Of a DNA stretch of 32,000 nucleotides, positions 5,111 to 32,000 are shown one piece after another. The stretch's first letter is position 1; every line of letters starts with the position of its first letter. This DNA comes from Roseiflexus castenholzii DSM 13941 (GTDB lineage Bacteria; Chloroflexota; Chloroflexia; Chloroflexales; Roseiflexaceae). The translations under genes and the position numbers were made by a program. The DNA lies in contig NC_009767.1 in NCBI RefSeq assembly GCF_000017805.1, positions 5,444,368 through 5,476,367 of the forward strand, in the 5' to 3' direction. The notes under the pieces are model-generated. The model had not been told where the DNA came from and made no database searches. It was given only the letters and a program-made list of their open reading frames with translations.

Positions 5111-5144
5111 GGTTCGGTTCTCAGTTCTCGCTTCTCAGTTCCTC
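5111..5144 (+). repeat. Heptamer tract (GTTCTCA-like x4-5)
   Basis: ggttcg gttctca gttctcg cttctca gttcctc. The stop codon (5135-5137) of the minus-strand gene lies inside this tract. Confidence 0.8.
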
Positions 5145-6461: not shown

Positions 6462-7091
6462 ATGATTCACTCTGCCGACAAATGTTCCGATCAGAAGAGC
6501 ACCCGCGAACGGATTCTCGAAGCGGCGCTGGACATTTTTTCGTCGAAAGGGTACCACGACGCGCGCCTGGATGATATTGTCGAAGTGGCGCATATCTCGA
6601 AAGGGTCGATCTACTTCTACTTTCCAAACAAGGAGCGCCTCTTTCTGGCGCTCGTCGATCAATTCGCCGACCTGATCGAGCGACGCGCCACCGAAGCCAT
6701 TGAGCGCCAGCCGCGCGCCGGGATCGACCGGGTGCGCGCGGCGATCATGGCGGTGATCGAGACGTTCGGCAAGTATCGCCGTCCCGCCAAAATCCTGCTG
6801 GTGCAGGCGGTTGGGTTGGGGGCGCCTTTCGAGAAAAAGCGCCTGGAAGTCACTGATCGCTTTGCGGCGTTGATTAAGCGCCATCTCGACGAAGCAATCA
6901 CCGTGGGCGAAATCCAGCCGATCGACACGGCGGTGGTGGCGCATGCCTGGATGGGGGCAATCTACAACCTGGTCATCCGTTGGGTGATGACCGGCGATCC
7001 GCCCGCGGAGCGTATTCCGCCCACGCTCGTACCGTTACTGCTGCGCAGCGTTAATTATCCGGTGGAAGAGAAACAGGGCAACGCCGTATAA
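6462..7091 (+). CDS. TetR/AcrR-family transcriptional regulator
   Basis: The N-terminal HTH RERILEAALDIFSSKGYHDARLDDIVEVAHISKGSIYFYFPNKERLF is a textbook TetR_N signature. In-frame ATG 6462 gives a typical ~209-aa protein. Confidence 0.9.
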   Translation: MIHSADKCSDQKSTRERILEAALDIFSSKGYHDARLDDIVEVAHISKGSIYFYFPNKERLFLALVDQFADLIERRATEAIERQPRAGIDRVRAAIMAVIETFGKYRRPAKILLVQAVGLGAPFEKKRLEVTDRFAALIKRHLDEAITVGEIQPIDTAVVAHAWMGAIYNLVIRWVMTGDPPAERIPPTLVPLLLRSVNYPVEEKQGNAV

Positions 7092-7097
7092 GGACAG

Positions 7098-9135
7098 AGG
7101 TGAGAGGCAAGAGGCGAGCGGCGCGCGGCGCGAGGTGTGAGGCGCGAGGCGCGCGGCGCGAGGGGCCCGACCATGGCGTAGCGCGAGATTTATCTCGCAT
7201 TTGTGGCGCGCGGCGCGAGGGGCCCGACCATGGCGTAGCGCGAGATTTATCTCGCATTTGTGGCGAGGCGCGCGGCGCGCGGCGCGAGGTGCGAGGCGCG
7301 AGGGGCGCGGCGCGAGGGGCCCGACCATGGCGTAGCGCGAGATGTATCTCGCATTTGTGGCGAGGCGCGAGGGGCCCGACCATGGCGTAGCGCGAGATTT
7401 ATCTCGCATTGGTGGCGCGGCGCGAGGGACCCGACCATGGCGTAGCGCGAGATTTATCTCGCAACGAGGCGCGAGGCGCGCGGCGCGCGGCGCGAGGGAC
7501 CCGACCATGGCGTAGCGCGAGATTTATCTCGCATTGGTGGCGCGCGGCGCGAGGGGCGCGGCGCGAGGGGAGAGGCGCCCGACAATGGCGTAGCGCGAGA
7601 TTTATCTCGCATTGGTGGCGCGAGGCGCGAGGGGCCCGACAAGGGCGTAGCGCGAGATGTATCTCGCATTTGTGGCGAGGCGCGCGGCGCGAGGCGCGAG
7701 GCGCGAGGGACCCGACCATGGCGTAGCGCGAGATTTATCTCGCATTGGTGGCGCGCGGCGCGAGGGGCGCGGCGCGAGGGGCCCGACCATGGCGTAGCGC
7801 GAGATTTATCTCGCATTTGTGGCGAGGCGCGCGGCGCGAGGCGCGAGGGGCCCGACCATGGCGTAGCGCGAGATGTATCTCGCATTTGTGGCGAGGCGCG
7901 CGGCGCGCGGCGCGAGGGACCCGACCATGGCGTAGCGCGAGATTTATCTCGCATTGGTGGCGCGCGGCGCGAGGGGCCCGACCATGGCGTAGCGCGAGAT
8001 GTATCTCGCATTGGTGGCGCGGCGCGAGGGGCCCGACCATGGCGTAGCGCGAGATGTATCTCGCAACGAGGCGCGAGGCGCGAGGCGCGCGGCGCGAGGT
8101 GCGAGGCGCGAGGCGCGAGGCGTGAGGTGCGAGGCGCGAGGCGCGCGGCGCGAGGGGCCCGACCATGGCGTAGCGCGAGATGTATCTCGCAACGAGGCGC
8201 GAGGCGCGAGGCGCGCGGCGCGAGGGGCCCGACAAGGGCGTAGCGCGAGATGTATCTCGCAACGAGGCGCGAGGCGCGAGGCGCGCGGCGCGAGGGACCC
8301 GACCATGGCGTAGCGCGAGATTTATCTCGCATTGGTGGCGCGAGGCGCGAGGGGCCCGACCATGGCGTAGCGCGAGATTTATCTCGCATTTGTGGCGCGG
8401 CGCGCGGCGCGAGGCGCGCGGCGCGAGGGGAGAGGCGCCCGACAATGGCGTAGCGCGAGATTTATCTCGCATTGGTGGCGCGAGGCGCGAGGGGCCCGAC
8501 CATGGCGTAGCGCGAGATTTATCTCGCATTTGTGGCGCGGCGCGCGGCGCGAGGCGCGAGGCGCGAGGGGAGAGGCGCCCGACAATGGCGTAGCGCGAGA
8601 TTTATCTCGCATTTGTGGCGCGGCGCGCGGCGCGAGGCGCGAGGCGCGAGGTGCGAGGCGCGCGGCGCGAGGTGCGAGGCGCGCGGCGCGAGGCGTGAGG
8701 CGCGAGGCGAGGGGCGCGCGGCGCGCGGCGCGAGGGGAGAGGCGCCCGACAATGGCGTAGCGCGAGATTTATCTCGCATTTGTGGCGCGAGGCGCGAGGG
8801 GCCCGACCATGGCGTAGCGCGAGATTTATCTCGCAACGAGGCGCGCGGCGCGCGGCGCGCGGCGCGAGGGGCCCGACCATGGCGTAGCGCGAGATTGATC
8901 TCGCAACGAGGCGCGAGGCGCGAGGGACCCGACCATGGCGTAGCGCGAGATTGATCTCGCAACGAGGCGCGAGGCGCGAGGCGCGAGGCGCGAGGCGCGA
9001 GGCGCGAGGTGCGAGGCGCGAGGCGCGAGGCGCGCGGCGCGAGGCGCGAGGCGTGAGGTGCGAGGCGCGAGGCGCGAGGCGCGCGGCGCGAGGGGAGAGG
9101 CGAATGCGATGCCCTGAGCCTGCGAAGGGTTGAAC
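7098..9135 (+). repeat. ~2 kb non-coding hyper-repeat: 25 direct REP-like hairpin units separated by octamer (GAGGCGCG/GCGGCGCG) runs
   Basis: Unit: GAGGG(G/A)CCCGAC(C/A)A(T/A/G)GGCGTAGCGCGAGAT-NN-ATCTCGCA plus (TTTGTGGCG | TTGGTGGCG | ACGAGGCG). I counted 25 occurrences of GTAGCGCGAGAT..ATCTCGC, all on the + strand, at irregular spacing of roughly 53-165 bp. The fillers are low-complexity octamer repeats. All six frames stay open only because the repeats contain few stop codons. Confidence 0.95.
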
Positions 9136-9203
9136 GTATCATCCACTGTGATCCCTCACCAGCGTACATTGGCTATTGTACGAATGATCGCGCATTAGCA
9201 TTA

Positions 9204-9245
9204 GTTCTCAATTCTTAGTTCTCAGTTCTCAGTTCTCAGTTCTCA
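9204..9245 (+). repeat. Heptamer tandem repeat (GTTCTCA)x6 abutting the menF start codon
   Basis: gttctca attctta gttctca gttctca gttctca gttctca, followed directly by ATG 9246. No GGAGG-type SD is visible. Confidence 0.9.
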
Positions 9246-11019: not shown

Positions 11020-11068
11020 GTTCCCGGTTCTCAGTTCTCAGTTCTCGGTTCTCAGTTCCTGGTTCTCG
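11020..11068 (+). repeat. Heptamer tandem repeat (GTTCTCA-like x7) abutting the menD start codon
   Basis: gttcccg gttctca gttctca gttctcg gttctca gttcctg gttctcg, then tcc and ATG 11072. Confidence 0.9.
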
Positions 11069-16480: not shown

Positions 16481-16502
16481 AGAACCGGGAACTGAGAACC
16501 GC
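16481..16502 (-). repeat. Heptamer tract abutting the APH start codon (minus-strand orientation)
   Basis: In gene orientation it reads gc ggttctca gttcccg gttct, followed directly by ATG (16480). Confidence 0.75.
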
Positions 16503-17390: not shown

Positions 17391-18320
17391 ATGACGCTCC
17401 CGCATTCGCGTGATTGCGCGCGCTCGGGATCACTGCGCTGGCGATCTCCGATGATCACCCTGCCTGCCGCGTGGCGCGAAGCGAACATTGCCCTGGCGTT
17501 GGAACAACAGGCAGGCGGCGTGCCAGACGTCAGTTTGCGGCTGTACGACGTCCTCCCCAAACTGGAAACTCTGAACGGCACCCTTGATTCTGCCCGTAGG
17601 ATGGCAGATGACCTGGTTGCCTCCATGCAACGCGGCGGAATCACCAACGCCATAGACCGCGCCCGCGGACTGCGAGCCGAGTTGATGTTCAGGCTGGGCG
17701 ATTGGGCGGCGTTTGAAGCGTATGCGCAGGGGTATCATCCGCCCAAACAGCCGTTGTTCTTTCCCTATCGGCTGGAGACGCTGCTGCAAATCCGTTATCT
17801 GGCGCGGCGAAAGGCTTGGGATGAGAGCCGCCGTCTGATGCAGGAGCAGGCGCGGCTGGCGCGCGCAGCGGGGTATCTCGAATATGAGATGGAACTGCAC
17901 ATCGTCGGCGCGTTGCTGGAACAGGCGGCGGGCAATTCCTCCAACGCCATCCGAATGCTGGCGCGCGCGCTGGAGATTGGCAGGGCGGGCGGCTATGTGC
18001 GTGTTTTTCTCGATGAAGGCGAAGAGATGCGCACCCTGCTGGCGCAATTGCGCAGGGATGATTTTGCGGCGAGCCTGCTGGCGGCGTTTGGCAAGCCCGC
18101 CCATATTGACCAATCTGCCCTGATTGAACCGCTCACCGAGCGCGAGATGGACGTGCTGAAACTGGTTGCCGAAGGACTCTCGAACCCTGAAATTGCAGAA
18201 AAACTGTATCTCTCGGTTGGGACGGTCAAGACGCACGTCAAGCACATTTACGGCAAACTGGGCGTGGATGACCGCGTGACGGCGGCGGGCAAGGCGCGCG
18301 AGTTGGGGTTAATCAACTGA
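17391..18320 (+). CDS. LuxR-family regulator corresponding to the C-terminal third of MalT/LAL-type regulators
   Basis: C-terminal HTH LTEREMDVLKLVAEGLSNPEIAEKLYLSVGTVKTHVKHIYGKLGV. The preceding helical repeats end in GYVRVFLDEGEEMRTLL, as in MalT-like proteins, but there is no NTPase domain. Start uncertain (ATG 17391 or 17451; the ORF is open from 17295). Confidence 0.75.
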   Translation: MTLPHSRDCARSGSLRWRSPMITLPAAWREANIALALEQQAGGVPDVSLRLYDVLPKLETLNGTLDSARRMADDLVASMQRGGITNAIDRARGLRAELMFRLGDWAAFEAYAQGYHPPKQPLFFPYRLETLLQIRYLARRKAWDESRRLMQEQARLARAAGYLEYEMELHIVGALLEQAAGNSSNAIRMLARALEIGRAGGYVRVFLDEGEEMRTLLAQLRRDDFAASLLAAFGKPAHIDQSALIEPLTEREMDVLKLVAEGLSNPEIAEKLYLSVGTVKTHVKHIYGKLGVDDRVTAAGKARELGLIN

Positions 18321-18332
18321 CGGTCCACAAAG

Positions 18333-18598
18333 TGGCGCGAGACATTATCTCCGTAGGGGGGGTATCTCGTGTCGTAGCGCGCCATTCATGTCGCGTTTAG
18401 GGCGACATAAATGGCGCAATACGGTCGCGGTACGGTCGCAGTATCGGCGTAGCGCGCCATTCATGTCGCGTTTAGGGCGACATAAATGGCGCAATACGGT
18501 CGCGGTACGGTCGCAGTATCGGCGTAGCGCGCCATTCATGTCGCGTTTAGGGCGACATAAATGGCGCAATACGGTCGCGGTACAATTTCAATCGTAGG
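18333..18598 (+). repeat. REP-like array upstream of the RAYT gene (one degenerate unit plus 3 x 75-bp tandem units)
   Basis: GTAG at 18374, 18449 and 18524 (period 75). Each unit, GTAGCGCGCCATTCATGTCGC-GTTTAGG-GCGACATAAATGGCGC, folds as a 16-bp stem (1 mismatch) with a 7-nt loop, followed by AATACGGTCGCGGTACGGTCGCAGTATCGGC. Confidence 0.9.
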
Positions 18599-18606
18599 TT
18601 TTTTCC

Positions 18607-19245
18607 ATGTCTCACGATATTTTTTATCGGCGCAATTTGCCGCACATTCATCCCAAAGGTCACGCTTTTTTCGTCACCTTTTCGCTATTGCACGCCATTC
18701 CGTATGACGTCCTGGAACAACTCAAAGCGGAAAGGCAAAATGAACTTCGTCAGGTAGATTTGGCGCAACGCTACAGCATCCAGAAAAAGCATTTTGGGAA
18801 ATATGATGAGTGGCTCGACCGCTGTGAAAACAGCCCGCGCTGGCTGGAAGAACCCGAAATTGCCGCCATTGTTGCCAGCGAAATCGAGCGCATGAATGGG
18901 GAACGCTATACATTGATTGCCTACTGCATCATGCCCAATCATGTACATTTACTTTTGGAAGGACTGCTTGCAGCCGATGCGCGCCATCGCGGACAGTCGG
19001 CAAAATATCCGCTCACCGACACGCTGCGCTTACTCAAAGGTCGCACCGCTCGCGCGTGCAACCTTGCGCTGAAGCGGGAAGGGCAGTTTTGGCAGCATGA
19101 GAGTTATGACCATTTTGTACGGGACGATAATGAACTTGGGCGTATCATTGCTTATATCTTGAACAATCCAGTGAAGGCAGGGCTTGTAAAGGAATGGAGC
19201 GAGTGGAAGTTTTTCTATATCAATCCTGAGTGGGGAGAGTGGTAA
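18607..19245 (+). CDS. REP-associated tyrosine transposase (RAYT; IS200/IS605-type Y1 HUH enzyme)
   Basis: 212 aa. N-terminal YRRNLPHIHPKGHAFFVTFSL, HUH motif YCIMPNHVHLLL, catalytic-Tyr region FWQHESYDHFVRD. There is no tnpB and no IS ends. Both flanks are arrays of GTAG-prefixed palindromes. Confidence 0.85.
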   Translation: MSHDIFYRRNLPHIHPKGHAFFVTFSLLHAIPYDVLEQLKAERQNELRQVDLAQRYSIQKKHFGKYDEWLDRCENSPRWLEEPEIAAIVASEIERMNGERYTLIAYCIMPNHVHLLLEGLLAADARHRGQSAKYPLTDTLRLLKGRTARACNLALKREGQFWQHESYDHFVRDDNELGRIIAYILNNPVKAGLVKEWSEWKFFYINPEWGEW

Positions 19246-19251
19246 ATCTAA

Positions 19252-19765
19252 AAGTAGCGCGAGATTCTCGCCCTGAGCCTGCCGAAGGGTATCTCGCGTT
19301 TAGGCGACATCAATCCCCATTCGGGGACAACGTGTCGCAGTACGGCGTAGCGCGAGATTCATCTCGCGGTTTTAGGACGACATAAATGTCGCAGTACAGG
19401 CGGTGGCGCGAGATTCTCGCCCTGAGCCTGCCAAAGGGTATCTCGCGTTTAGGGCGACATAAATGTCGCAGTACGGCGTAGCGCGAGATTTATCTCGCGG
19501 TTTTAGGACGACATAAATGTCGCAGTACAGGCGGTGGCGCGAGATTCTCGCCCTGAGCCTGCCAAAGGGTATCTCGCGTTTAGGGCGACATAAATGTCGC
19601 AGTACGGCGTAGCGCGAGATTTATCTCGCGTTTAGGGCGACATAAATGTCGCAGTACGGTCGTACCGCGAGATTCTCGCCCTGTACCGCGACATTCATGT
19701 CGCAACACGGCGTGGCGCGAGATTTATCTCGCGGTTTCAGGCGATATCAATCCCAATTCTCAATC
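19252..19765 (+). repeat. REP-like array downstream of the RAYT gene (mixed hairpin classes)
   Basis: Alternating modules: GTAGCGCGAGAT-(TT/TC)-ATCTCGCG; the long form GCGAGATTCTCGCCCTGAGCCTGCC(A/G)AAGGGTATCTCGCG; and GCGACAT-AA-ATGTCGC. About 10 hairpins, with GTAG on the + strand. Confidence 0.9.
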
Positions 19766-19876
19766 CCCATTCGACGACGATGTCTCGCGCTGCGAATTTG
19801 CACATCTTTCGGCATACTACCTGACCCGTTTCATGTAATTGGTTCTGCAAGTACAATCGGCGCAGGAGTACACCCT

Positions 19877-20389
19877 ATGACCATTCTTATCCGCCCCGAA
19901 AGCCCCGCAGACCTCCCCGCCATTTTTCATGCCAATCAACTGGCGTTTGGGCGCGACAATGAAGCCCGCCTGGTGAACAAACTGCGCGACGCCAACGCAG
20001 TCGTTCTCTCGCTGGTCGCCGAACAGGATGGGCGCGTCGTCGGACACATCCTGTTCTCGCCTGTCACCATCCGCGATGGCGGGACGGAATGGCAGGCAGT
20101 CGGGCTGGGACCGATGGCGGTCTTGCCAGAAGTTCAGAAACAGGGCGTCGGCTCCGCCTTAATCCGCGCCGCGCTGGCAGAACTGAAAACGCTGGGGCAT
20201 GACGTCGTCATCGTGCTGGGACACGCTGAATACTATCCGCGCTTTGGATTCCAGCCCACGCAGCCGTTTGGAATCCGCTGGGAAATTGACGTGCCGGCCG
20301 AAGTCTTCATGCTGGCGGAACTCACCCCCGGCGCCCTGCGCGGCAGGCGCGGCGTTGTGCGCTATCACCCTGCCTTTGCAGGAGTCTAA
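19877..20389 (+). CDS. GNAT-family N-acetyltransferase
   Basis: 170 aa from ATG 19877. Acetyl-CoA motif VLPEVQKQGVGSALIRAAL. The upstream part of the track ORF (from 19646) just reads through the repeat array. Confidence 0.85.
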   Translation: MTILIRPESPADLPAIFHANQLAFGRDNEARLVNKLRDANAVVLSLVAEQDGRVVGHILFSPVTIRDGGTEWQAVGLGPMAVLPEVQKQGVGSALIRAALAELKTLGHDVVIVLGHAEYYPRFGFQPTQPFGIRWEIDVPAEVFMLAELTPGALRGRRGVVRYHPAFAGV

Positions 20390-20428
20390 AACCCATGAAC
20401 CTGTGTTTCCTAAAGCGACCCCGTTTTT

Positions 20429-21190
20429 TTATTCGCTGGCTTCTTCTTTGTACCCGCGCAGCAGGTAGATTCCATACACCATCAGCAGCGTGACCTGCAC
20501 CACATCCAGCGGGATGGCGGGGAAGTTAGTGTACTTCAACGCCAGGTCGTGCAGGGCGTGAAGTACAACGGGGAACCAGATGGTGTTCGCGCGTAGGCGG
20601 ATGGCGCTGAGACCAATTCCATGCACGAAAGCGCCGAGCATTTGGGCAAAGACGATGAAGGGATTGCGATAGAGCAGGTTGCCGATGTGCATGAGACCAA
20701 AGAGCAGAGACGAGATGACCACGCTGCGGGTCGTGCCTGTAGGCTTGAGCACGCGCAGAACGATGCCGCGCATGAGACCTTCTTCCATGAAGCCCGTCAG
20801 GGCGTAGGCAACTGCAAGATAGACGAAAGTCCCCGCGTCGCCGGTTTTGATGCCCATCAGAAAGGGCAGCCCCAGCACGATGAGAAAGGGAATGACCATC
20901 AGGCGCGAATCACGCCATTCAGCGGGGAAGTTGAAGCCTGCCGCCTTCCACCAGCCCAGCGCAGAAAGCCCAGCCGCCACCAGAACCGAAAGCGCAATCA
21001 GGGCGATGAATTCGGGCTGAAATTGCGGCAAGAGCTCCTGCGCAGCGAGACCAAACAGGGTGGAAAGAACGACAAACGCCACAAACAAAATCACCGCCGA
21101 AAGAACGGGGCGGCTTTCAAAAAACGATAGGATGGCGGCGCGCGCGCCCTGGCTGGACGATGGTACAGAAACGCGAACCTGGTTTTGCAT
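20429..21190 (-). CDS. CPBP-family intramembrane metalloprotease (CAAX protease-like)
   Basis: Polytopic membrane protein with the three CPBP motifs EEGLMRG, FGLMH and HALHD. Confidence 0.85.
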   Translation of the reverse strand: MQNQVRVSVPSSSQGARAAILSFFESRPVLSAVILFVAFVVLSTLFGLAAQELLPQFQPEFIALIALSVLVAAGLSALGWWKAAGFNFPAEWRDSRLMVIPFLIVLGLPFLMGIKTGDAGTFVYLAVAYALTGFMEEGLMRGIVLRVLKPTGTTRSVVISSLLFGLMHIGNLLYRNPFIVFAQMLGAFVHGIGLSAIRLRANTIWFPVVLHALHDLALKYTNFPAIPLDVVQVTLLMVYGIYLLRGYKEEASE

Positions 21191-21309
21191 GGAGACCTCC
21201 GATAAGCATTTGAAATCGTGAGGTCATTCTAGCAAGCGCCGGGGTTTTAAGCGTCGGTCTTAAGGCGGAGAGGATAGCCCTGCCTTGGGCTGAGCGCGCC
21301 CCGCAGGGT

Positions 21310-23358
21310 TCAACCGTTCGGAACGGTGACCGTGATCACCGTCCCCGCGCCGGGCCGGCTTTCGATGTGGAAAGCGCCGCCGATGTGCGCGGCGCGCTCA
21401 GGCATGGATTTGAGTCCCAGATGACCAGGGTATGGCTGCGCGGGGTCGAAGCCTTTGCCGTTATCGCGGATTTCCAGCGTCAGCGCCCCGTCTGCGTTCA
21501 GCAGCGAGAGTTCCACCCGCGTGGCGTGGGCGTGCCTGGCGACGTTGTGCATGGCTTCCTGCGCGATGCGGTAAAGGGCTTCCTTCGCTTCGAGCGAAAT
21601 CTCAGGTTCGGGGTCGAAGCGCGTGACCACGTCCAGTTTGTGGCGGGCGCGCAGGGCGTCCGATTGTTTCGTCAGCGCGGCGACCAGCCCTTCGGTCTGG
21701 AGCGATTCGGGGCGCAGTTCAAAGATAAGGGCGCGCATTTCGGAGAGTCCCGCTTCGGCGAGCGAGAGAATGTACTCAAGCGGCTCGCCCAGTCTGGCGG
21801 GGTCGCGCTCCAGTTGCGTCTGCGCGGTGCGCGCGCCGAGCGCAATCCCATATAAAGCCTGCGAGACGGAATCGTGCAGTTCGCGCGCCAGCCGCTGACG
21901 TTCTTCCAGCGCCGCCATTTTGACCTGCGTCTCTTTGAGTTGCAGTTCGGCGCTGGTTTGGGCGAGTTCGCGCGTGCGGCGGTTGAGTTCATCGGTCATC
22001 TGGTTGAACGAAGCCGCCAGTTCGCCGAGTTCGTCATTTGACGTTACAGGCACCGAGACGTCCAGGTTGCCCGCCGTGATGGCGCGCACGCCGCTCAGCA
22101 TGTCTGTCATGGGACGCGCCAGAAAGCGCTGACTGAGCCAGAGCGTGACCGCCGCCGCACCGATGAAAAAGAGCGCCATGATGAGCAGGGTGTTGCGCAC
22201 GGTGGCGATGGCGTCGGCTTCGATGGCGCGCGCCACGCTTTGCGATTCGGCGGTGACTTCGGCGAGTGGAACGACGATGGACAGAGTCCAGCCCAGGTTT
22301 GGGAGCGAAGCGCGCGTGACGATGACAGGCTGCCCGTTGAGAGAGATTTCCAGCGCATCGGGCGGCTGCGCCGCTTGCAGCGCCAAAGCCAATTCTGTGT
22401 TCAGCTCGGTCAGCGCCGCGCCGAGCAGACCGTTGGCTGCCTGCTCCTGCGCGCTGAGCGGACGATTGGCAAGCGCGGCGGCGCGCCCGTCTGGGACGGC
22501 AATCAGCCGCCCTTCCGAATCCAAAAGAAAGGCGAAACTGCCTGGCGTGGGTTTGAGTTGACTCAGCCGTTCGATGAGGCGGGTGAGCGAAACGTCAATG
22601 CCGATGAAGCCCTGAAACTCGTCGCCGTAGTAGATGGGCGTATCAGCGCTGACCAGCAAGCCCTGACCCGCGTCGTCGAGATAAGGCGGCAGCCAGACGG
22701 TTTTGCGCTGCGGGTTGTTGTTGGGCGCGACGAGAAAATCTTCAATGCGCGCGGTTTGCGCCGCTTCCGCCGCGCCATTTTGCAGTTCCAATTCGGGCAG
22801 CCCGCGCACCGGGTAGTAGCGGAAGGTCAGTTGCGGTCCCTGAAAATAGATGCCCACGCCCGTCTCGGTTTGCGCCAACAGAGAGGGGAACAGGTCTTCC
22901 AGAATCGCCGAGTCGCGCAGGCTGCGGTCGGTGACTTCATCGGGCGGGATGCTGCCGATGTGCAGAATTTCGGTGCGGCGCTTGGGGTTGGCGTCGTAGT
23001 AGAGCAGACCGTTGTCGCTCAGGGTCAGTTGCGCGGCTTGATACACCACGTTGGGCGCGGCAGAAGCATCCGGCGTTTTGCCCGAAGCGCGCGCCTGCGC
23101 CATGAAATCGGCGGCGATTTTGGTGGCGCGCGCGGCTTGCTGCAATTCCAGGTCGTAGAGTTGGGCTTCCTGCGCAGTGAGTTGAATCAGCGTGTTGCGG
23201 CTTTGCGTTTGCAAACTGTCGGCGCTGCGCTGCGCGGCGGCTTGCTCCGCCTGATGAAAGCCGCGCCAGACCAGCGCGCCGGTGACGAGCGCCAGCAGCA
23301 AGACAAATGCCATTACTCCCGCAGCGATTTTGGCGCTGATGCGGTTGAACCTGACCAT
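21310..23358 (-). CDS. Sensor histidine kinase (periplasmic sensor domain, HAMP, HisKA_3, HATPase_c)
   Basis: TM helix (IAAGVMAFVLLLALVTGALVW) followed by a ~330-aa extracytoplasmic region, possibly Cache-like. HAMP (VRAITAGNLDVSVPVTSNDELGELAASFNQM), H-box ERQRLARELHDSVSQ, N/G boxes (AQEAMHNVARHA; IRDNGKGF; GLKSMPERA). ATG 23358 (MVRFNRIS) sits a few nt downstream of the RR stop codon. Confidence 0.9.
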   Translation of the reverse strand: MVRFNRISAKIAAGVMAFVLLLALVTGALVWRGFHQAEQAAAQRSADSLQTQSRNTLIQLTAQEAQLYDLELQQAARATKIAADFMAQARASGKTPDASAAPNVVYQAAQLTLSDNGLLYYDANPKRRTEILHIGSIPPDEVTDRSLRDSAILEDLFPSLLAQTETGVGIYFQGPQLTFRYYPVRGLPELELQNGAAEAAQTARIEDFLVAPNNNPQRKTVWLPPYLDDAGQGLLVSADTPIYYGDEFQGFIGIDVSLTRLIERLSQLKPTPGSFAFLLDSEGRLIAVPDGRAAALANRPLSAQEQAANGLLGAALTELNTELALALQAAQPPDALEISLNGQPVIVTRASLPNLGWTLSIVVPLAEVTAESQSVARAIEADAIATVRNTLLIMALFFIGAAAVTLWLSQRFLARPMTDMLSGVRAITAGNLDVSVPVTSNDELGELAASFNQMTDELNRRTRELAQTSAELQLKETQVKMAALEERQRLARELHDSVSQALYGIALGARTAQTQLERDPARLGEPLEYILSLAEAGLSEMRALIFELRPESLQTEGLVAALTKQSDALRARHKLDVVTRFDPEPEISLEAKEALYRIAQEAMHNVARHAHATRVELSLLNADGALTLEIRDNGKGFDPAQPYPGHLGLKSMPERAAHIGGAFHIESRPGAGTVITVTVPNG

Positions 23359-23362
23359 GAAC

Positions 23363-24004
23363 CTATGTCTCCCCTTCGATAGACACCAGCCCAATCCGCA
23401 CAGCATATAAGGCGGCTTGCGTGCGGCTCGGCACATCCAATTTGCGCAAAATGGCGCTAACGTGCGTCTTGACGGTCTTCTCGCCGATGTTGAGTTCGCG
23501 CGCAATCTCCTTGTTGGCGCGACCCAATGCCAGCAGACGCAACACATCGGTTTCGCGCTCGGTCAGTTTTTCGGGGCTTTCGGGGGCGCGCACGTCGCGC
23601 ATCAGCCGCGCGGCGGCTCGCGGCGAGAGTTGCACCTGCCCCGCTGCGGCGGCTTTAATGGCGCGGCGCAATTCTTCCGCCTGCGTATCTTTGAGCAAAT
23701 AGCCCATCGCTCCCGCGCGCATGGCTTTCATCACGGCTTCGTCTTCCAGCACGCTGGTCAGGGCGATAACTTCGGTATCAGGAAAATCGCGGCGGATGCG
23801 CGCAATGGCAGTCACGCCATCCATGACTGGCATGAGCAAATCCATCAAGACGACGTCGGGATTCAACTCCCCCGTCAGGCGGATGGCTTCTTCCCCGTTC
23901 TCCGCTTCGCCCACGACCTGAAGGTCTGGGTCGAGACCGAGAAACATCTTCAACCCCTGACGGACCACCGCGTGGTCATCTACGAGCAGAATACGAATGG
24001 ACAT
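23363..24004 (-). CDS. NarL/FixJ-family response regulator (REC + LuxR HTH)
   Basis: MSIRILLVDDHAVVRQGL...DVVLMDLLMPVMDG receiver domain and C-terminal LTERETDVLRLLALGRANKEIARELNIGEKTVKTHVSAILRKL. The track extension to 24232 reads through the repeat array. Confidence 0.92.
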   Translation of the reverse strand: MSIRILLVDDHAVVRQGLKMFLGLDPDLQVVGEAENGEEAIRLTGELNPDVVLMDLLMPVMDGVTAIARIRRDFPDTEVIALTSVLEDEAVMKAMRAGAMGYLLKDTQAEELRRAIKAAAAGQVQLSPRAAARLMRDVRAPESPEKLTERETDVLRLLALGRANKEIARELNIGEKTVKTHVSAILRKLDVPSRTQAALYAVRIGLVSIEGET

Positions 24005-24029
24005 ACGAAACGCTCCTTGCGCCCTCACT

Positions 24030-25380
24030 GAGCTTTCGTACCGCTTTCGTACCGCTTTCGTACCGCGACATTTATGTCGCGCCCCATATTGGAGTGCTCT
24101 CGTACCGCGACATTTATGTCGCACCCCATATTGGAGTGCTCTCGTACCGCGACATTTATGTCGCACCCCATATTGGGGTGCTCTCGTACCGCGACATTTA
24201 TGTCGCACCCCATACCTGACGGGTATACACAAATGCGAGATACCCTTTGGCAGGCTCAGGGCAAGAATCTCGCGCTACGCCATTGTCGGATTAACTTGTC
24301 GCACCCCATACCTGGCGGGTATGCTTTCGTACCGCGACATTTATGTCGCACCTCATATTGGGAGAATGCGAGATACCCTTCGGCAGGCTCAGGGCAAGAA
24401 TCTCGCACCACGCCATTGTCGGATTAATTTGTCGCGCCCCATATTGGAGTGCTTTCGTACCACACTTTCGTACCGCGACATTTATGTCGCACTCCATATT
24501 GGAGTGCTTTCGTACCACACTTTCGTACCGCGACATTTATGTCGCGCCCCATATTGGAGTGCTTTCGTACCACACTTTCGTACCGCGACATTTATGTCGC
24601 ACCCCATACCTGACGGGTACACACAAATGCGAGATACCCTTCGGCAGGCTCAGGGCAAGAATCTCGCGCTACGCCATTGTCGGATTAATTTGTCAATCTG
24701 CAACATGTCGCGCCTCATATTTTGGATGCCTGCGCCGAAGGCGAGATAAATCTCGCGCTACGCCATGCGCTACGCCATTGTCGGATTAATTTGTCAATCT
24801 GCAACATGTCGCGCCTCATATTTTGGATGCCTGCGCCGAAGGCGAGATAAATCTCGCGCTACGCCATGCGCTACGCCATTGTCGGATTAATTTGTCAATC
24901 TGCAATATGTCGCGCCCCATATTGGGGTGCTTTCACACTTTCGTACCGCGACATTTATGTCGCGCCCCATATTGGGCGAATGCGAGACACCCTTCGGCAG
25001 GCTCAGGGCAAGAATCTCGCGCTACGCCATTGTCGGATTAATTTGTCAATCTGCAACATGTCGCGCCTCATATTTTGGATGCCTGCGCCGAAGGCGAGAT
25101 AAATCTCGCGCTACGCCATGCGCTACGCCATTGTCGGATTAATTTGTCAATCTGCAACATGTCGCGCCTCATATTTTGGATGCCTGCGCCGAAGGCGAGA
25201 TAAATCTCGCGCTACGCCATGCGCTACGCCATTGTCGGATTAATTTGTCAATCTGCAATATGTCGCGCCCCATATTGGAGTGCTTTCACACTTTCGTACC
25301 GCGACATTTATGTCGCGCCCCATATTGGGCGAATGCGAGACACCCTTCGGCAGGCTCAGGGCGAGAATCTCGCGGTACGA
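24030..25380 (-). repeat. 1.35 kb REP-like array, inverted relative to the other arrays
   Basis: Contains the reverse complements of the modules seen at 7098-9135 and 19252-19765. CGCGACATTTATGTCGC about 10x; GCGAGATAAATCTCGCGCTACGCC 4x; GCGAGA(T/C)ACCCTT.GGCAGGCTCAGGGC.AGAATCTCGC 5x. Higher-order ~101-bp units (AATCTGCAACATGTCGCGCCTCATATTTTGGATGCCTGCGCCGAAGGCGAGATAAATCTCGCGCTACGCCATGCGCTACGCCATTGTCGGATTAATTTGTC) occur 4x. Confidence 0.93.
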
Positions 25381-25499
25381 ATAGGGAAATATGCCCCATT
25401 ATAGTTTGCAATCGCCTTTCTCAAGTCAGACTTAAGACGGAGACGGAACCACAACCTTTTGCCGATGCGCCCAGCGCGCCGCCCGCCTATACTGGCGGC

Positions 25500-25880
25500 A
25501 TGATAACCATCCTGCTGGTTGACGACGACCCTAACATCCGCCGCGGGCTGAGAATGAATCTCGCGCTCGAACCCGATTTCGCCGTCGTGGGCGAAGCGGG
25601 TGATGGCTGGGACGCCCTGCGGCTGGCGCGCGAACTCCAGCCCGACGCGGTGGTGATGGATATCCGCCTGCCTTCGCTCGACGGCTTGAGCGCGGCGGAG
25701 CGCTTGCGGCAATCACAACTGCGCTGCGCCGTCATCATCCTGACATTGTACGATGAGCCGTCCAACCGCGCCCGCGCCCGACAGATTGGCGTGGCGGCGT
25801 TTCTTTCCAAGAGCGCATCGGCGGATGCGTTGAAACAGACCCTCCGCAACATCACTTTCGACAAAGGAGCGCAAACATGA
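25500..25880 (+). CDS. Receiver-only (CheY-like) response regulator
   Basis: MITILLVDDDPNIRRGL...DAVVMDIRLPSLDG...FLSK receiver motifs. 126 aa with no output domain. Confidence 0.85.
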   Translation: MITILLVDDDPNIRRGLRMNLALEPDFAVVGEAGDGWDALRLARELQPDAVVMDIRLPSLDGLSAAERLRQSQLRCAVIILTLYDEPSNRARARQIGVAAFLSKSASADALKQTLRNITFDKGAQT

Positions 25881-28820: not shown

Positions 28821-28921
28821 ACAGTTCTCGATCACTTTGTCCATCTTACACGCACTGTGTGCTCTGCGTCTGATTGTCTGCTTTGGGTAGTTCACAGTTC
28901 TCGATCACCTTGTCCATCTTA
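28821..28921. repeat. 28-bp direct duplication spanning the 3' end of the 28846-29466 ORF
   Basis: ACAGTTCTCGATCAC(T/C)TTGTCCATCTTA at 28821-28848 and 28894-28921 (1 mismatch, 73-bp offset). It encodes KMDKVIENC in the upstream copy. Confidence 0.85.
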
Positions 28922-29907: not shown

Positions 29908-30366
29908 TTACGAACCCGCTAATGCTTCAATACTGCGGATGTAGTCGTCCGGTAGCCGATGCTGGCGCGCTCCTGTGATGATCGTCTCAAGATACTCAGT
30001 GCTCGGCTTGAGTGACTCGGCGGCGAGAAACCTCTCCCCGGCCACGTATGTCACTGCATCTAGCTCCTCACCACTGTCAAGTTGAACCCGAATCGCGTGT
30101 CGCTGATAGTGCCCACCCTTCACTCCCTCACACTTGTCCATCTTTTGGAGATCATCATAACTGCACCGGTACACAACACCCCAGACGGTCGCGCCTGCGG
30201 CTGGAACAATGTTCGCCTTACCTGTACCATCTTTTTTGCTGCGCTTGTTGAACACCAGCCGGTACCCGGTGAGCCACGCTACCCGCGCCTCCCTGCTGGA
30301 ACCGATGCGCTCTTCCATCTGTTCCTTCGATAGATTACTGCCGTAGGCAAAGTACCACTGATCCAT
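29908..30366 (-). CDS. Gamma-glutamylcyclotransferase (GGCT/AIG2-like) family protein
   Basis: WYFAYGSNLSKEQMEERI, VWGVVY, MDKCEGVKGGHYQRHAIRV and TYVA align, from my memory, with human GGCT (FLYFAYGSNLLTERI; VWGVVW; LDEQEGVKSGMYVVIEVKV), including the catalytic Glu context. 152 aa from ATG 30366. Confidence 0.85.
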   Translation of the reverse strand: MDQWYFAYGSNLSKEQMEERIGSSREARVAWLTGYRLVFNKRSKKDGTGKANIVPAAGATVWGVVYRCSYDDLQKMDKCEGVKGGHYQRHAIRVQLDSGEELDAVTYVAGERFLAAESLKPSTEYLETIITGARQHRLPDDYIRSIEALAGS

Positions 30367-30402
30367 AGGAAGATCCTTTCGCTCTGTCCTGACGATACTC
30401 CT

Positions 30403-30806
30403 CACGCGGCCTATACCCTGAGCGTTCTTGGCCTCCGCTGCGCCTGTGCGTAAGGGATGCAGCCCTCCCTCACGCGGCCTATACCCTGAGCGTTCTTGGC
30501 CTCCGCTGCGCCTGTGCGTAAGGGATGCAGCCCTCCCTCACGCGGCCTATACCCTGAGCGTTCTTGGCCTCCGCTGCGCCTGTGTGTAAGGGATGCAGCC
30601 CTCCCTCACGCGGCCTATACCCTGAGCGTTCTTGGCCTCCGCTGCGCCTGTGCGTAAGGGATGCAGCCCTCCCTCACGCGGCCTATACCCTGAGCGTTCT
30701 TGGCCTCCGCTGCGCCTGTGCGTAAGGGATGCAGCCCTCCCTCACGCGGCCTATACCCTGAGCGTTCTTGGCCTCCTCTGCGCCTTTGCGTAAGGGATGA
30801 CACTGC
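30403..30806 (-). repeat. Six tandem 68-bp repeats (5 near-identical plus 1 degenerate) immediately upstream of the GGCT gene
   Basis: CACGCGGCC starts at 30403, 30471, 30539, 30607, 30675 and 30743 (period exactly 68). One C>T change in unit 3. Unit 6, distal from the gene, is degenerate. Across each unit junction GCGTAAGGGA-TGCAGCCC-TCCCTCACGC can form a 10-bp stem with 1 mismatch. Since 68 is not a multiple of 3, no consistent reading frame exists. Confidence 0.95.
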
Positions 30807-30983: not shown

Positions 30984-31658
30984 TCACTCCTGTTGTGTAC
31001 ATAGTGATTCTAATCGGGTTAACCAATCGTGAAAATGCGGACATTTGTCTCGAATGGTTTCAATCCCGATTTTTTGGACTAGTAACGGACCGTGTAAACG
31101 TTTTTGATAGCCGGGAAAATATTGCCGGATGCGGGCAGCAGGATGGGTGGTGTCGCCGTCGTTGATTTCTTCTGGTGGCAAACCGTTAATATCTCTCTGG
31201 AGATCGGCAAGTTTGGCTTTATACTGAGGCAAGACATCGGCAAGATGTTCCGGTTCGGTCAGAACGAGAGCTTCGAACTCGTGCAAGACAAGAAAGGGCA
31301 AAAATCGCTGGCTTCCGATGTCCATGGCAAATGCATCTTGCAGAGCACGTACCCTTTCGGAGAGTGTACCGGTTGGCAATGTCGATATTCCCGGGAAGTC
31401 ATCTGGTAATCCGTAGTAATCAATCATTGTAGTCACTAATGCCACGTTAGGTGTATTTAGGAGATTACGAAGATCTTTTTTCACCTGCCCGTAGGAAACA
31501 ATGCCTCCTTTAAACGTCTGACCGGATTTGGTTCGTTTGGTCCGGGCTAGCGTAGGAATTACGAAGATGGAGCAGGTTGTGAATAGATGTGGCGCTAACA
31601 CGTCGCGCACGAAAGTCTCCTCGGTTTGCCCTTCCACATAAACAAGCACCTGCTTCAT
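30984..31658 (-). CDS. DUF4276-family protein (TOPRIM-like partner of an ABC-type ATPase)
   Basis: MKQVLVYVEGQTEETFVRDVLAPHL, GGIVSYGQVKKDL, TTMIDYYGLPDDFPG, LVLHEFEALVL and KCPHFHDWL match my recollection of the DUF4276 consensus. ATGA overlap with the upstream ATPase gene. Confidence 0.8.
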   Translation of the reverse strand: MKQVLVYVEGQTEETFVRDVLAPHLFTTCSIFVIPTLARTKRTKSGQTFKGGIVSYGQVKKDLRNLLNTPNVALVTTMIDYYGLPDDFPGISTLPTGTLSERVRALQDAFAMDIGSQRFLPFLVLHEFEALVLTEPEHLADVLPQYKAKLADLQRDINGLPPEEINDGDTTHPAARIRQYFPGYQKRLHGPLLVQKIGIETIRDKCPHFHDWLTRLESLCTQQE

Positions 31659-32000
31659 CGCGCCGGTCGTCCTCTCAGTAGATTCTTTTCCCACAGATCG
31701 CCGAGTCCGTAATCTTCCAGCCAAGATGCCATCTGCTCTTTTTCCAGTCGGCTGAATAGTGTTTCCCCTTGGACACGATCTACGACCAAAATGTCGTCCG
31801 GTTCGAACTGATTAACGAGGGTAACTGACTGCGTGGCTAAGATAATCTGCGTATGTTCCGCCGCACTGCGCACCATGTCGGCCAAGATAGCGATAGCATA
31901 AGGATGTAACCCTAGTTCCGGCTCATCGAGCACGATGGTAGCCGGAAACCGTTCGGGTGGCTGCAAAAAGAGCGTTGCCAGACAGATAAAACGCAGCGTG
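31655..32000 (-). CDS. AAA/ABC-type ATPase (AAA_21-like), C-terminal part only (5' end outside window)
   Basis: Walker B / D-loop region TIVLDEPELGLHP and ILATQS. The frame stays open to the window edge (..TLRFICLATLFLQPPERF). Confidence 0.8.
   Translation of the reverse strand, partial: TLRFICLATLFLQPPERFPATIVLDEPELGLHPYAIAILADMVRSAAEHTQIILATQSVTLVNQFEPDDILVVDRVQGETLFSRLEKEQMASWLEDYGLGDLWEKNLLRGRPAR

Follow-up and report, generated by a model that had tools for sequence, protein, structure and literature searches.

We analyzed a 32,000-nucleotide stretch of Roseiflexus castenholzii DSM 13941 (contig NC_009767.1, positions 5,444,368 to 5,476,367 of the forward strand; hereafter the window), in which a gene for a REP-associated tyrosine transposase (RAYT) lies between arrays of short hairpins of the kind known as repetitive extragenic palindromes (REPs). 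We consider it very probable that this locus is a REPtron, as defined for Escherichia coli and others (PMC6006769, PMC8266576); that is, a RAYT gene resident in the chromosome and inherited vertically, with its cognate REPs on either side and further clusters of the same REP family nearby. The RAYT is a domesticated single-strand-DNA transposase, and the REPs are hairpins that it presumably cuts and copies. REPtrons have been known since 2010-2012; this kind of system is well known, and the locus is an unusually repeat-rich example of it.

The open reading frame (ORF) at 18607-19245 had been singled out in a first-pass annotation, an earlier reading of the sequence alone, for its HUH motif, PNHVHLL. 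This ORF is real, and its product scores above the curated cut-offs of the two kinds of profile which that annotation had proposed as a check: 25.5 bits against Pfam Y1_Tnp (cut-off 23), and 85.4 bits against NCBIfam NF047646, the equivalog model 'REP-associated tyrosine transposase' (cut-off 80). By contrast, it fails the IS200 model NF033573, at 12.7 bits versus a cut-off of 55. Among solved structures, the sole sequence match is 4ER8, the E. coli TnpA-REP protein. An AlphaFold2 model calculated with 48 homologues as input (predicted local distance difference test score, pLDDT, 87; predicted template-modeling score, pTM, 0.86) has as its top fold match in the PDB the same entry, E. coli TnpA-REP with bound REP (E = 7.7e-8; template-modeling score 0.66 on the target); the transposases of ISDra2, IS608 and IS200 rank below it (E = 2e-4 to 1e-2). 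The gene and the sites located by mapping its residues onto E. coli TnpA-REP are as follows.

18607-19245, plus strand: RAYT (TnpA-REP) gene, ATG start, 212 residues, containing PNHVHLL
18940-18948, plus strand: HUH histidines H112 and H114
19090-19122, plus strand: foot-recognition segment, W162-R172
19153-19155, plus strand: catalytic tyrosine Y183, followed by N187

In the alignment, the E. coli residues that contact the GTAG tetranucleotide, or foot, namely W94, Q95, E100, H101 and R104, correspond to W162, Q163, D168, H169 and R172; the catalytic Y115 corresponds to Y183, and N119 to N187. The roles of these residues are taken from PMC6006769, and the C-terminal part of the alignment was given independently by the search of solved structures. 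Because this mapping puts the nucleophile at Y183, in IIAYILNNP, the HESYDHF motif that the first-pass annotation took for the tyrosine region belongs instead to the foot-recognition segment: it aligns with the GTAG contacts, with Y167 on W99. The active-site motifs on the Y1 fold are thus H112-V-H114 and Y183-ILN-N187-P188, the latter being the Y...NP signature of class-2 TnpA-Y1 proteins (PMC6006769). Among 48 homologues of 56-97% identity, no variation occurs at seven of the nine mapped residues (H112, H114, W162, D168, R172, Y183 and N187), and P188 of the tyrosine motif is likewise invariant. Judging from these alignments, the protein is a RAYT-type Y1 HUH enzyme whose active site and foot-recognition residues are intact. 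The model also contains two added helices, residues 33-72, between beta1 and alphaA, and F63, D67, D71, W79 and L80, in or near this insert, are invariant in the same 48 sequences; a C-terminal tail is absent. The gene evolves under purifying selection, since dN/dS is 0.10-0.13 relative to its two closest orthologues. It stands between genes for a MalT-like regulator and a GNAT acetyltransferase, and is the only RAYT copy in the window. No tnpB was found beside it and its flanks are repeat arrays; the first-pass annotation was therefore right that tnpB and the ends of an insertion sequence (IS) are missing, as it was in suspecting a Chloroflexota-like genome, to which the nearest RAYT homologues point.

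Hairpins of the GCGA[G/C]AT..AT[C/G]TCGC family number 58 in the window, and all fall within four intergenic blocks.

7096-9140, plus strand: array 1, 25 head-to-tail copies of CCCGACMATGGC-GTAGC-GCGAGATnTATCTCGC, between TetR and MenF-like genes
18333-18600, plus strand: upstream REP array, a degenerate GTGG-footed long hairpin (18333-18372) and then three identical 75-bp units
19250-19795, plus strand: downstream REP array, B-type hairpins in alternation with eight of type A, some short and some long
24022-25376, minus strand: array 3, B hairpins together with A hairpins in short and long forms, in the gap between two response-regulator genes that are transcribed divergently

With a total length of 4214 bp, these blocks take up 13.2% of the window, in agreement with the 4.2 kb and 13% estimated previously. 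The arrays reported on both sides of the ORF are present, the downstream one ending about 30 bp farther on than had been thought; of the three additional stretches said to hold the same hairpins, there are only two, array 1 and array 3. The footed 21-mer GTAGCGCGAGATNNATCTCGC occurs 33 times in the window at up to 2 mismatches, versus 0.00 expected from 100 dinucleotide-preserving shuffles.

Each REP is a GC-rich hairpin of 6-7 bp with a 5' foot, GTAG, GTGG or GTAC, one base off the stem. Type A has the stem GCGAGAT-NN-ATCTCGC, and its foot, GTAG (or GTGG), is one base 5' of it. Type B has the stem GCGACAT-NN-ATGTCGC, and its foot, mostly GTAC but also GTAT, is on the strand opposite to that of the adjoining A. 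What distinguishes the two stems is a compensated G:C to C:G swap at stem position 5, which is Watson-Crick paired in all 47 window copies (33 G-C, 14 C-G) and in 206 of 212 copies elsewhere. The basic unit 3' of the RAYT gene, found inverted in array 3, is the foot-outward doublet GTAGC-[A]-GTTTAGG-[B]-AGTAC. Folded as single-stranded DNA (ssDNA), A alone yields -5.7 kcal/mol (z = -2.3), the A+B doublet -17.2 kcal/mol (z = -5.2), the compound unit of the upstream array -19.7 kcal/mol (z = -6.0), and an 86-nt composite typical of other species -30.1 kcal/mol (z = -8.4). The earlier statement that almost all hairpins are preceded by GTAG thus holds for type A, if GTGG is included, and not for type B. 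Likewise, GTAG does lie on the plus strand on both sides of the gene, as had been remarked, but this is no departure from known architecture, because the B hairpins are the inverted partners, with GTAC or GTAT feet on the other strand. That is, the A/B doublets and compound units are organized as bacterial interspersed mosaic elements (BIMEs), or REP doublets forming hairpins (REPINs), array 1 being the exception.

The 75-bp unit of the upstream array, GTAG-C-GCGCCATTCATGTCGC-GTTTAGG-GCGACATAAATGGCGC-AATAC, is repeated 2.8 times at 100% identity; of its halves, GCGCCAT..ATGTCGC and GCGACAT..ATGGCGC, each pairs less well with itself than with the other. The downstream array has a period of 131 bp, with 2.7 copies at 95% identity; its A feet, on the plus strand, are GTAG in four cases, GTGG in three and GTAC in one, and the GTAC foot of B is on the minus strand. 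Array 3 is reversed in orientation, with A feet on the minus strand and B GTAC feet on the plus strand, and shows higher-order periods of 42, 55, 101 and 353 bp. Outside array 1, the nested periods of 42-353 bp are 95-100% identical and the repeated units include linker DNA. Array 1 itself is 72% GC and consists of 25 singletons with no B partner, spaced by variable runs of the heptamer GCGAGGC/GCGCGGC, such that the REP spacings fall into three classes that are multiples of 7 nt apart. The (GCGAGGC)n microsatellite between these REPs reaches 20 copies, especially at 8963-9102.

Both A and B also exist in 'long' forms, with an additional stem-loop within the loop. In long A this is a 23-nt insert, CCCTGAGCCTGCCRAAGGG / CCCTGAGCCTGYCRAAGGG.

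19259-19297, 19408-19446, 19539-19577, 24235-24273 and others, and 7244-8440 of locus L121 in the sister genome described below: long A hairpins with the 23-nt insert

A scan of 202 loci recovered this insert, apart from the window itself, solely in L121 and in three Chloroflexota/Anaerolineales loci; the insert is possibly a small nested element. A remnant of it closes array 1, at about 9113-9131. In places (24755-24778 and the repeats thereof, 18415-18443, 18490-18518, and the downstream flank at locus L047) the foot and left arm alone are duplicated in tandem: the units are ATGGCGTAGCGC x2, ACGGTCGCRGT x2.6 and, in L047, GTAGCGCGACATT x3. Either cleavage and rejoining or slippage at the base of the hairpin could have left these traces.

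The REPs are not confined to this neighborhood. In an exact scan with one genome per species, the 21-mer was present in at least 120 stretches, which come from about 45 genomes at the species level, mostly metagenome-assembled genomes (MAGs) of Anaerolineae/Anaerolineales; this and the next four counts refer to the matches listed. The copies lie outside genes in 115 of 135 cases (binomial p about 7e-81), where the proxy for genes, greedy longest ORFs, covers 87% of the sequence. Doublets account for 74 of the 135 copies and double-foot REPs for 11, and a RAYT homologue is within just 3 of the 120 loci. One MAG contains at least 27 REP loci on at least 10 scaffolds, seven of them along a single 1-Mb scaffold. 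The palindromes thus extend beyond the RAYT gene, as had been predicted: to two further intergenic sites in the window, and to dispersed, intergenic sites in relatives.

The hairpins are concentrated beside RAYT genes. The flanks of RAYT orthologues with 97%, 89%, 64%, 55% and 54% identity all contain this hairpin family. Among metagenomic RAYT relatives of 41-65% identity, 78 of 80 have an element consisting of a foot and a hairpin at 350 bp or less from the gene. Such elements have a density of 5.5 per kb near the gene, versus 0.23 per kb beyond a distance of 1 kb. Taken with the NF047646 score and with 4ER8 as the top fold, this bears out the first-pass proposal of a RAYT with its cognate REPs. 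In a scan that demanded a GTA or GTGG foot, the feet beside RAYT relatives were GTAA (101), GTAG (90), GTAC (55), GTAT (21) and GTGG (21); in a control without this demand, GT[AG]N was within 6 nt of 38% of hairpin sides, versus roughly 9% by chance. The stems vary with RAYT lineage, and include GCGACAT, CGCAAGAT, GACAAACT, GTCGAAAT, CACAGGAT and others. The share of RAYT pairs with a common stem core climbs from 6% for proteins less than 45% identical to 89% for those more than 80% identical, a difference reached in none of 1000 permutations. In relatives, therefore, REPs are dispersed, intergenic and concentrated beside RAYT genes, and their stem sequence follows the RAYT lineage, co-diversifying with the protein. 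The full-length RAYT architecture is represented in metagenomes by 739 clusters (50% identity) at E <= 1e-30, and by 5743 at E <= 1e-10. Some relatives (P0260, P0262, P0272, P0278 and P0336) carry insertions of 30-110 residues between the HUH and tyrosine motifs. In P0260 the repeated peptide VGRDSSR is what a footed A-type REP, GTAGGGCGAGATTCATCTCGC, encodes when translated in frame; because the inserted peptides translate this element, REPs have been inserted within the RAYT genes of relatives.

Comparison with close strains separates a resident gene from changing arrays. The 97% orthologue is on a 5.08-Mb contig of GCA_026003855.1 (the sister genome, locus L121), with the MalT-like gene upstream and, past a 7-kb indel, GNAT, Rce1-like and kinase genes downstream. 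At the nucleotide level the RAYT gene, 95.9% identical between the two genomes, has diverged to about the same degree as its flanking genes (about 94.5-94.8%). The length of the downstream array is 0.5 kb in the window versus 1.5 kb in the sister genome, and the upstream arrays differ in composition. The spacer that contains array 1 is 217 bp and 108 bp long and free of REPs in two syntenic relatives (84-89% nucleotide identity), and no A or B REP was found anywhere in 13 kb of these two. The arrays mark places of fast length change between close strains. One of the two orthologous TetR-MenF spacers (L203, 5784-6001) already contains a short GCGAGG-type tract; hence, on sequence comparison, the GCGAGGC microsatellite seems to have existed before the REP array, and to have been amplified along with it. 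The MalT-like regulator 5' of the RAYT gene is represented in the window by its C-terminal 341 residues only, versus 880 residues in the sister genome (17295-18320 in the window, 3257-5899 in L121), and downstream the indel spans 19751-19821 in the window and 8450-15383 in L121, so that 4.4 kb and 7 kb present on either side of the REPtron in the sister genome are missing from the window. We do not claim REPs as the cause of these indels, because an array adjoins only one of the four junctions.

How the arrays might have arisen can be outlined by analogy. Characterized RAYTs bind the folded REP on ssDNA, are guided by the foot to cleave at CT or CA, and form a 5'-phosphotyrosine (PMC8266576). 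By analogy with the E. coli, Stenotrophomonas and Marinomonas proteins, the RAYT described here would bind the hairpin and foot on ssDNA and leave the complement unbound, the predicted substrate for binding and cleavage being GTAGC-GCGAGATTTATCTCGC. The foot would act as a guide, choosing a nearby CT or CA dinucleotide, and Y183, together with the HUH-bound metal, would form the 5'-phosphotyrosine link. The 3'-OH of another strand would then resolve this intermediate, and rejoining elsewhere would seed new REP copies. Because the GTAC foot in Marinomonas shifts cleavage to GA or GT (PMC8266576), the GTAG feet of A and the GTAC feet of B may set different cut sites. Once seeded, a block of REP plus linker would be amplified, mainly by tandem duplication through slippage or unequal recombination, into arrays of kilobases; block duplication is suggested by the 95-100% identity of units that include linker, by spacing in 7-nt steps, by the absence of array 1 from the relatives' spacer, and by the unequal array sizes (0.5 kb versus 1.5 kb) in two genomes about 95% identical.

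Several points weigh against the REPtron reading. Array 1 units contain no CT dinucleotide outside the stem, whereas CT is the usual cleavage site in characterized RAYT systems (PMC8266576); therefore either CA is used or the array 1 copies are not substrates. The feet of B are GTAC or GTAT, not the canonical GT[AG]G. Binding, cleavage and mobilization are transferred from distant relatives, the identity to 4ER8 being 18%. The counts of REPs and RAYTs for the host genome rest on 32 kb and four intergenic sites. Lastly, recombination independent of the RAYT could be the source of all array growth.

The reach of the 21-mer across phyla bears on a more far-reaching possibility. The base-identical 21-nt REP occurs in at least four phyla, at 31-60% GC, beside RAYTs of 46-97% identity: on a 665-kb contig of Melioribacteraceae of about 31-32% GC, in Planctomycetota of about 42% GC, in KSB1 at 54% and in Chloroflexota at about 56%. 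In these genomes the A REPs form foot-outward doublets with different partner hairpins, and tandem arrays with a period of about 125-130 bp (loci L111, 1200-1900; L097, 3330-3720; L070, L074 and L052). RAYT relatives of only 46-48% identity, on contigs of 39-46% GC, are still flanked by GTAG-GCGAGAT hairpins. Because an identical A REP is found in Melioribacteraceae, Planctomycetota and KSB1, the sequences imply that the RAYT-REP system has spread between phyla. One could go further and propose that a RAYT-REP pair whose recognition code is frozen spreads horizontally, and that the kilobase head-to-tail arrays would be built in situ by repeated cleavage and rejoining by the enzyme, not by host recombination. 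We regard this as unlikely, though not far-fetched; if true, it would contrast with the usual species-specific REPs.

Less probable still is that the arrays are minisatellites produced by host slippage and recombination alone, with the RAYT a bystander, or domesticated for another task, that mobilizes nothing. This would account for the block periods with their 95-100% identical units and included linker, for the 7-nt steps, for the 9.5 kb that separates array 1 from the RAYT gene, and for the lack of the CT cleavage dinucleotide in the flanks of array 1 REPs; moreover, in vivo mobilization of REPs by a RAYT has never been shown, even in E. coli, and PMC8266576 words it as 'might represent'. 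Slippage enlarges arrays, yet it does not seed new loci. It leaves unexplained that one and the same footed hairpin occurs, dispersed, at hundreds of separate intergenic sites in many genomes, that hairpins flank 78 of 80 RAYT relatives, that stem and protein co-diversify, and that the foot-recognition residues are invariant.

We think it quite improbable that the arrays are primarily cis elements selected by the host (terminators, mRNA stabilizers, protein-binding or insulator sites), or an array of CRISPR-like repeats or RNA genes. E. coli REPs do have such roles (reviewed in PMC8266576 and PMC6006769), and the arrays are all intergenic, one of them between divergent regulator genes. However, no relevant Rfam family was matched, either by the whole window at the gathering threshold or by 18300-25500 at E <= 1. 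Relative to shuffles, the arrays are not enriched in terminator-like sites (13 versus 17.4 expected) or promoter-like sites (4 versus 5.7). A CRISPR array was rejected, since the would-be spacers are themselves repeats and the neighbors include no cas genes. In addition, array 1 is missing from syntenic relatives with the same flanking genes, and so is not needed for their regulation. A role of this kind would in any case be compatible with a REPtron, rather than exclusive of it.

Finally, an autonomous IS of the IS200/IS605 type, with the ORF as its transposase and the flanking hairpins as its left and right ends, would fit the common Y1 HUH fold, the secondary matches to TnpA structures and the 5' guide tetranucleotide of the hairpins, but can practically be dismissed in view of the failed IS200 model, a Y...NP (class 2) rather than Y...Q tyrosine motif, the lack of tnpB, flanks made of multi-copy arrays instead of single distinct ends, the 117 of 120 listed hairpin loci that have no such gene, and a syntenic position with neighbor-like divergence and a dN/dS of about 0.1.

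Some further features of the window deserve mention. The arrays give rise to long spurious ORFs of up to 311 residues, at 7035-9169 and 23997-25880, and falsely extend the N-termini of two response-regulator genes; gene callers are likely to report repeat-encoded 'hypothetical proteins' here. A tandem of a 68-bp unit (5.9 copies, 98% identity, 30400-30799), between the minus-strand ORFs 29908-30405 and 30984-31724, was considered as part of the REP system and rejected, as it differs in sequence and has no A or B hairpin. Also checked and found not to belong are runs of the heptamer AGTTCTC, at 5116-5136, 9203-9244 and 11026-11053, and at 16487-16500 and 28889-28902. Dimers of it match 12 times in the window versus 0.12 expected; the longest run is just upstream of the MenF-like gene and another is at the start of a MenD-like ORF. 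A GTTCTC-rich tract is similarly present in the TetR-MenF spacer of a relative (L204), and AGTTCTC may be a conserved upstream motif.

GTAG REPs were listed for Chloroflexi already in 2013, and proteins of this type are already labelled RayT by JGI and NCBIfam. The text of Di Nocera 2013 does not name the Chloroflexi species. In those parts of the supplements to Quentin et al. 2018 that were searched, no Chloroflexi genera were found, and a literature search found no paper specifically on the Anaerolineae RAYT family. The present analysis adds a well-documented REPtron of Chloroflexota (class Anaerolineae and allies), where REPs had previously been mentioned only in passing, and shows that a RAYT architecture for which the 2018 survey had a few dozen sequences forms a large family in metagenomes. 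Such arrays probably break short-read assemblies of these genomes. The family also offers a natural experiment on the recognition of foot and stem, with a compensated stem swap, several feet, and the same REP beside RAYTs that are 46-97% identical. Less ordinary are array 1, for its size and head-to-tail build, the relaxation of the foot, and the identical 21-mer across phyla.

Compared with the REPtron of E. coli (YafM, its REPs and BIMEs, and structure 4ER8), the locus has the same Y1 HUH fold, for which 4ER8 is the best structural match, and keeps the HUH motif, the W-Q...[E/D]-H..R foot contacts and the Y...NP motif. In both systems the gene is flanked by its own REPs, in inverted pairs and tandem clusters, and the REPs are intergenic and far more numerous than the gene. 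However, the RAYT in the window is only about 18% identical to the E. coli protein, has a two-helix insert of about 45 residues (residues 33-72), lacks the tail and has D in place of E100. The REPs are short, with perfect 6-7-bp stems, whereas those of E. coli are long and bulged; the foot is relaxed, to GTA[G/C/A/T] or GTGG, and the arrays reach 2 kb. With IS200/IS605 TnpA proteins the RAYT shares the fold and the logic of an ssDNA hairpin plus guide; it differs in its class-2 tyrosine motif, the absence of tnpB and of unique ends, and its behavior as a resident gene.

Group 3 RAYTs (subclass 2.5; Pseudomonas, Stenotrophomonas, Marinomonas) resemble this system in their REPs, which are short and perfectly paired, with the foot 1-2 nt from the stem. 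Their inverted doublets likewise form one long hairpin (REPIN), their clusters are tandemly reiterated along with flanking DNA (PMC3733652), and GTAC-type foot variants retarget cleavage in Marinomonas (PMC8266576). By contrast, the RAYT in the window is longer, has the N-terminal helical insert and contains NHVH rather than DH[LF]H, and the halves of its doublets are distinct stem variants (A and B) with different feet.

Other close counterparts are the RAYT subclasses 2.7 and 2.4, Bertels group 4 (Quentin et al. 2018, PMC6006769). The motifs of subclass 2.7, [ND]HVH, WQ and YI[LR][NQ]NP, fit NHVH, WQ and YILNNP in our RAYT, and so, equally, do those of subclass 2.4, NH[IFV]H, WQ and YIxNNP. 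Subclass 2.7 is also matched in length (212 residues versus a median of 213) and in lacking a tail, and the change of E100 to D is as reported for subclasses 2.5 and 2.7 (PMC6006769). On the other hand, double-foot REPs and the in-frame REP insertions between the HUH and tyrosine motifs of relatives are hallmarks of subclass 2.4 present in this family; the motif match was therefore not taken as decisive for subclass 2.7. Descriptions of both subclasses come mainly from Cyanobacteria and Bacteroidetes and concern 'long' REPs, whereas here the REPs are mostly short and the hosts mainly Anaerolineae. The family shares with them a patchy distribution across phyla, which for subclasses 2.4 and 2.7 has been reported as horizontally spread (PMC6006769); the 21-mer common to several phyla fits as an extension of this picture, and calls for no new principle.

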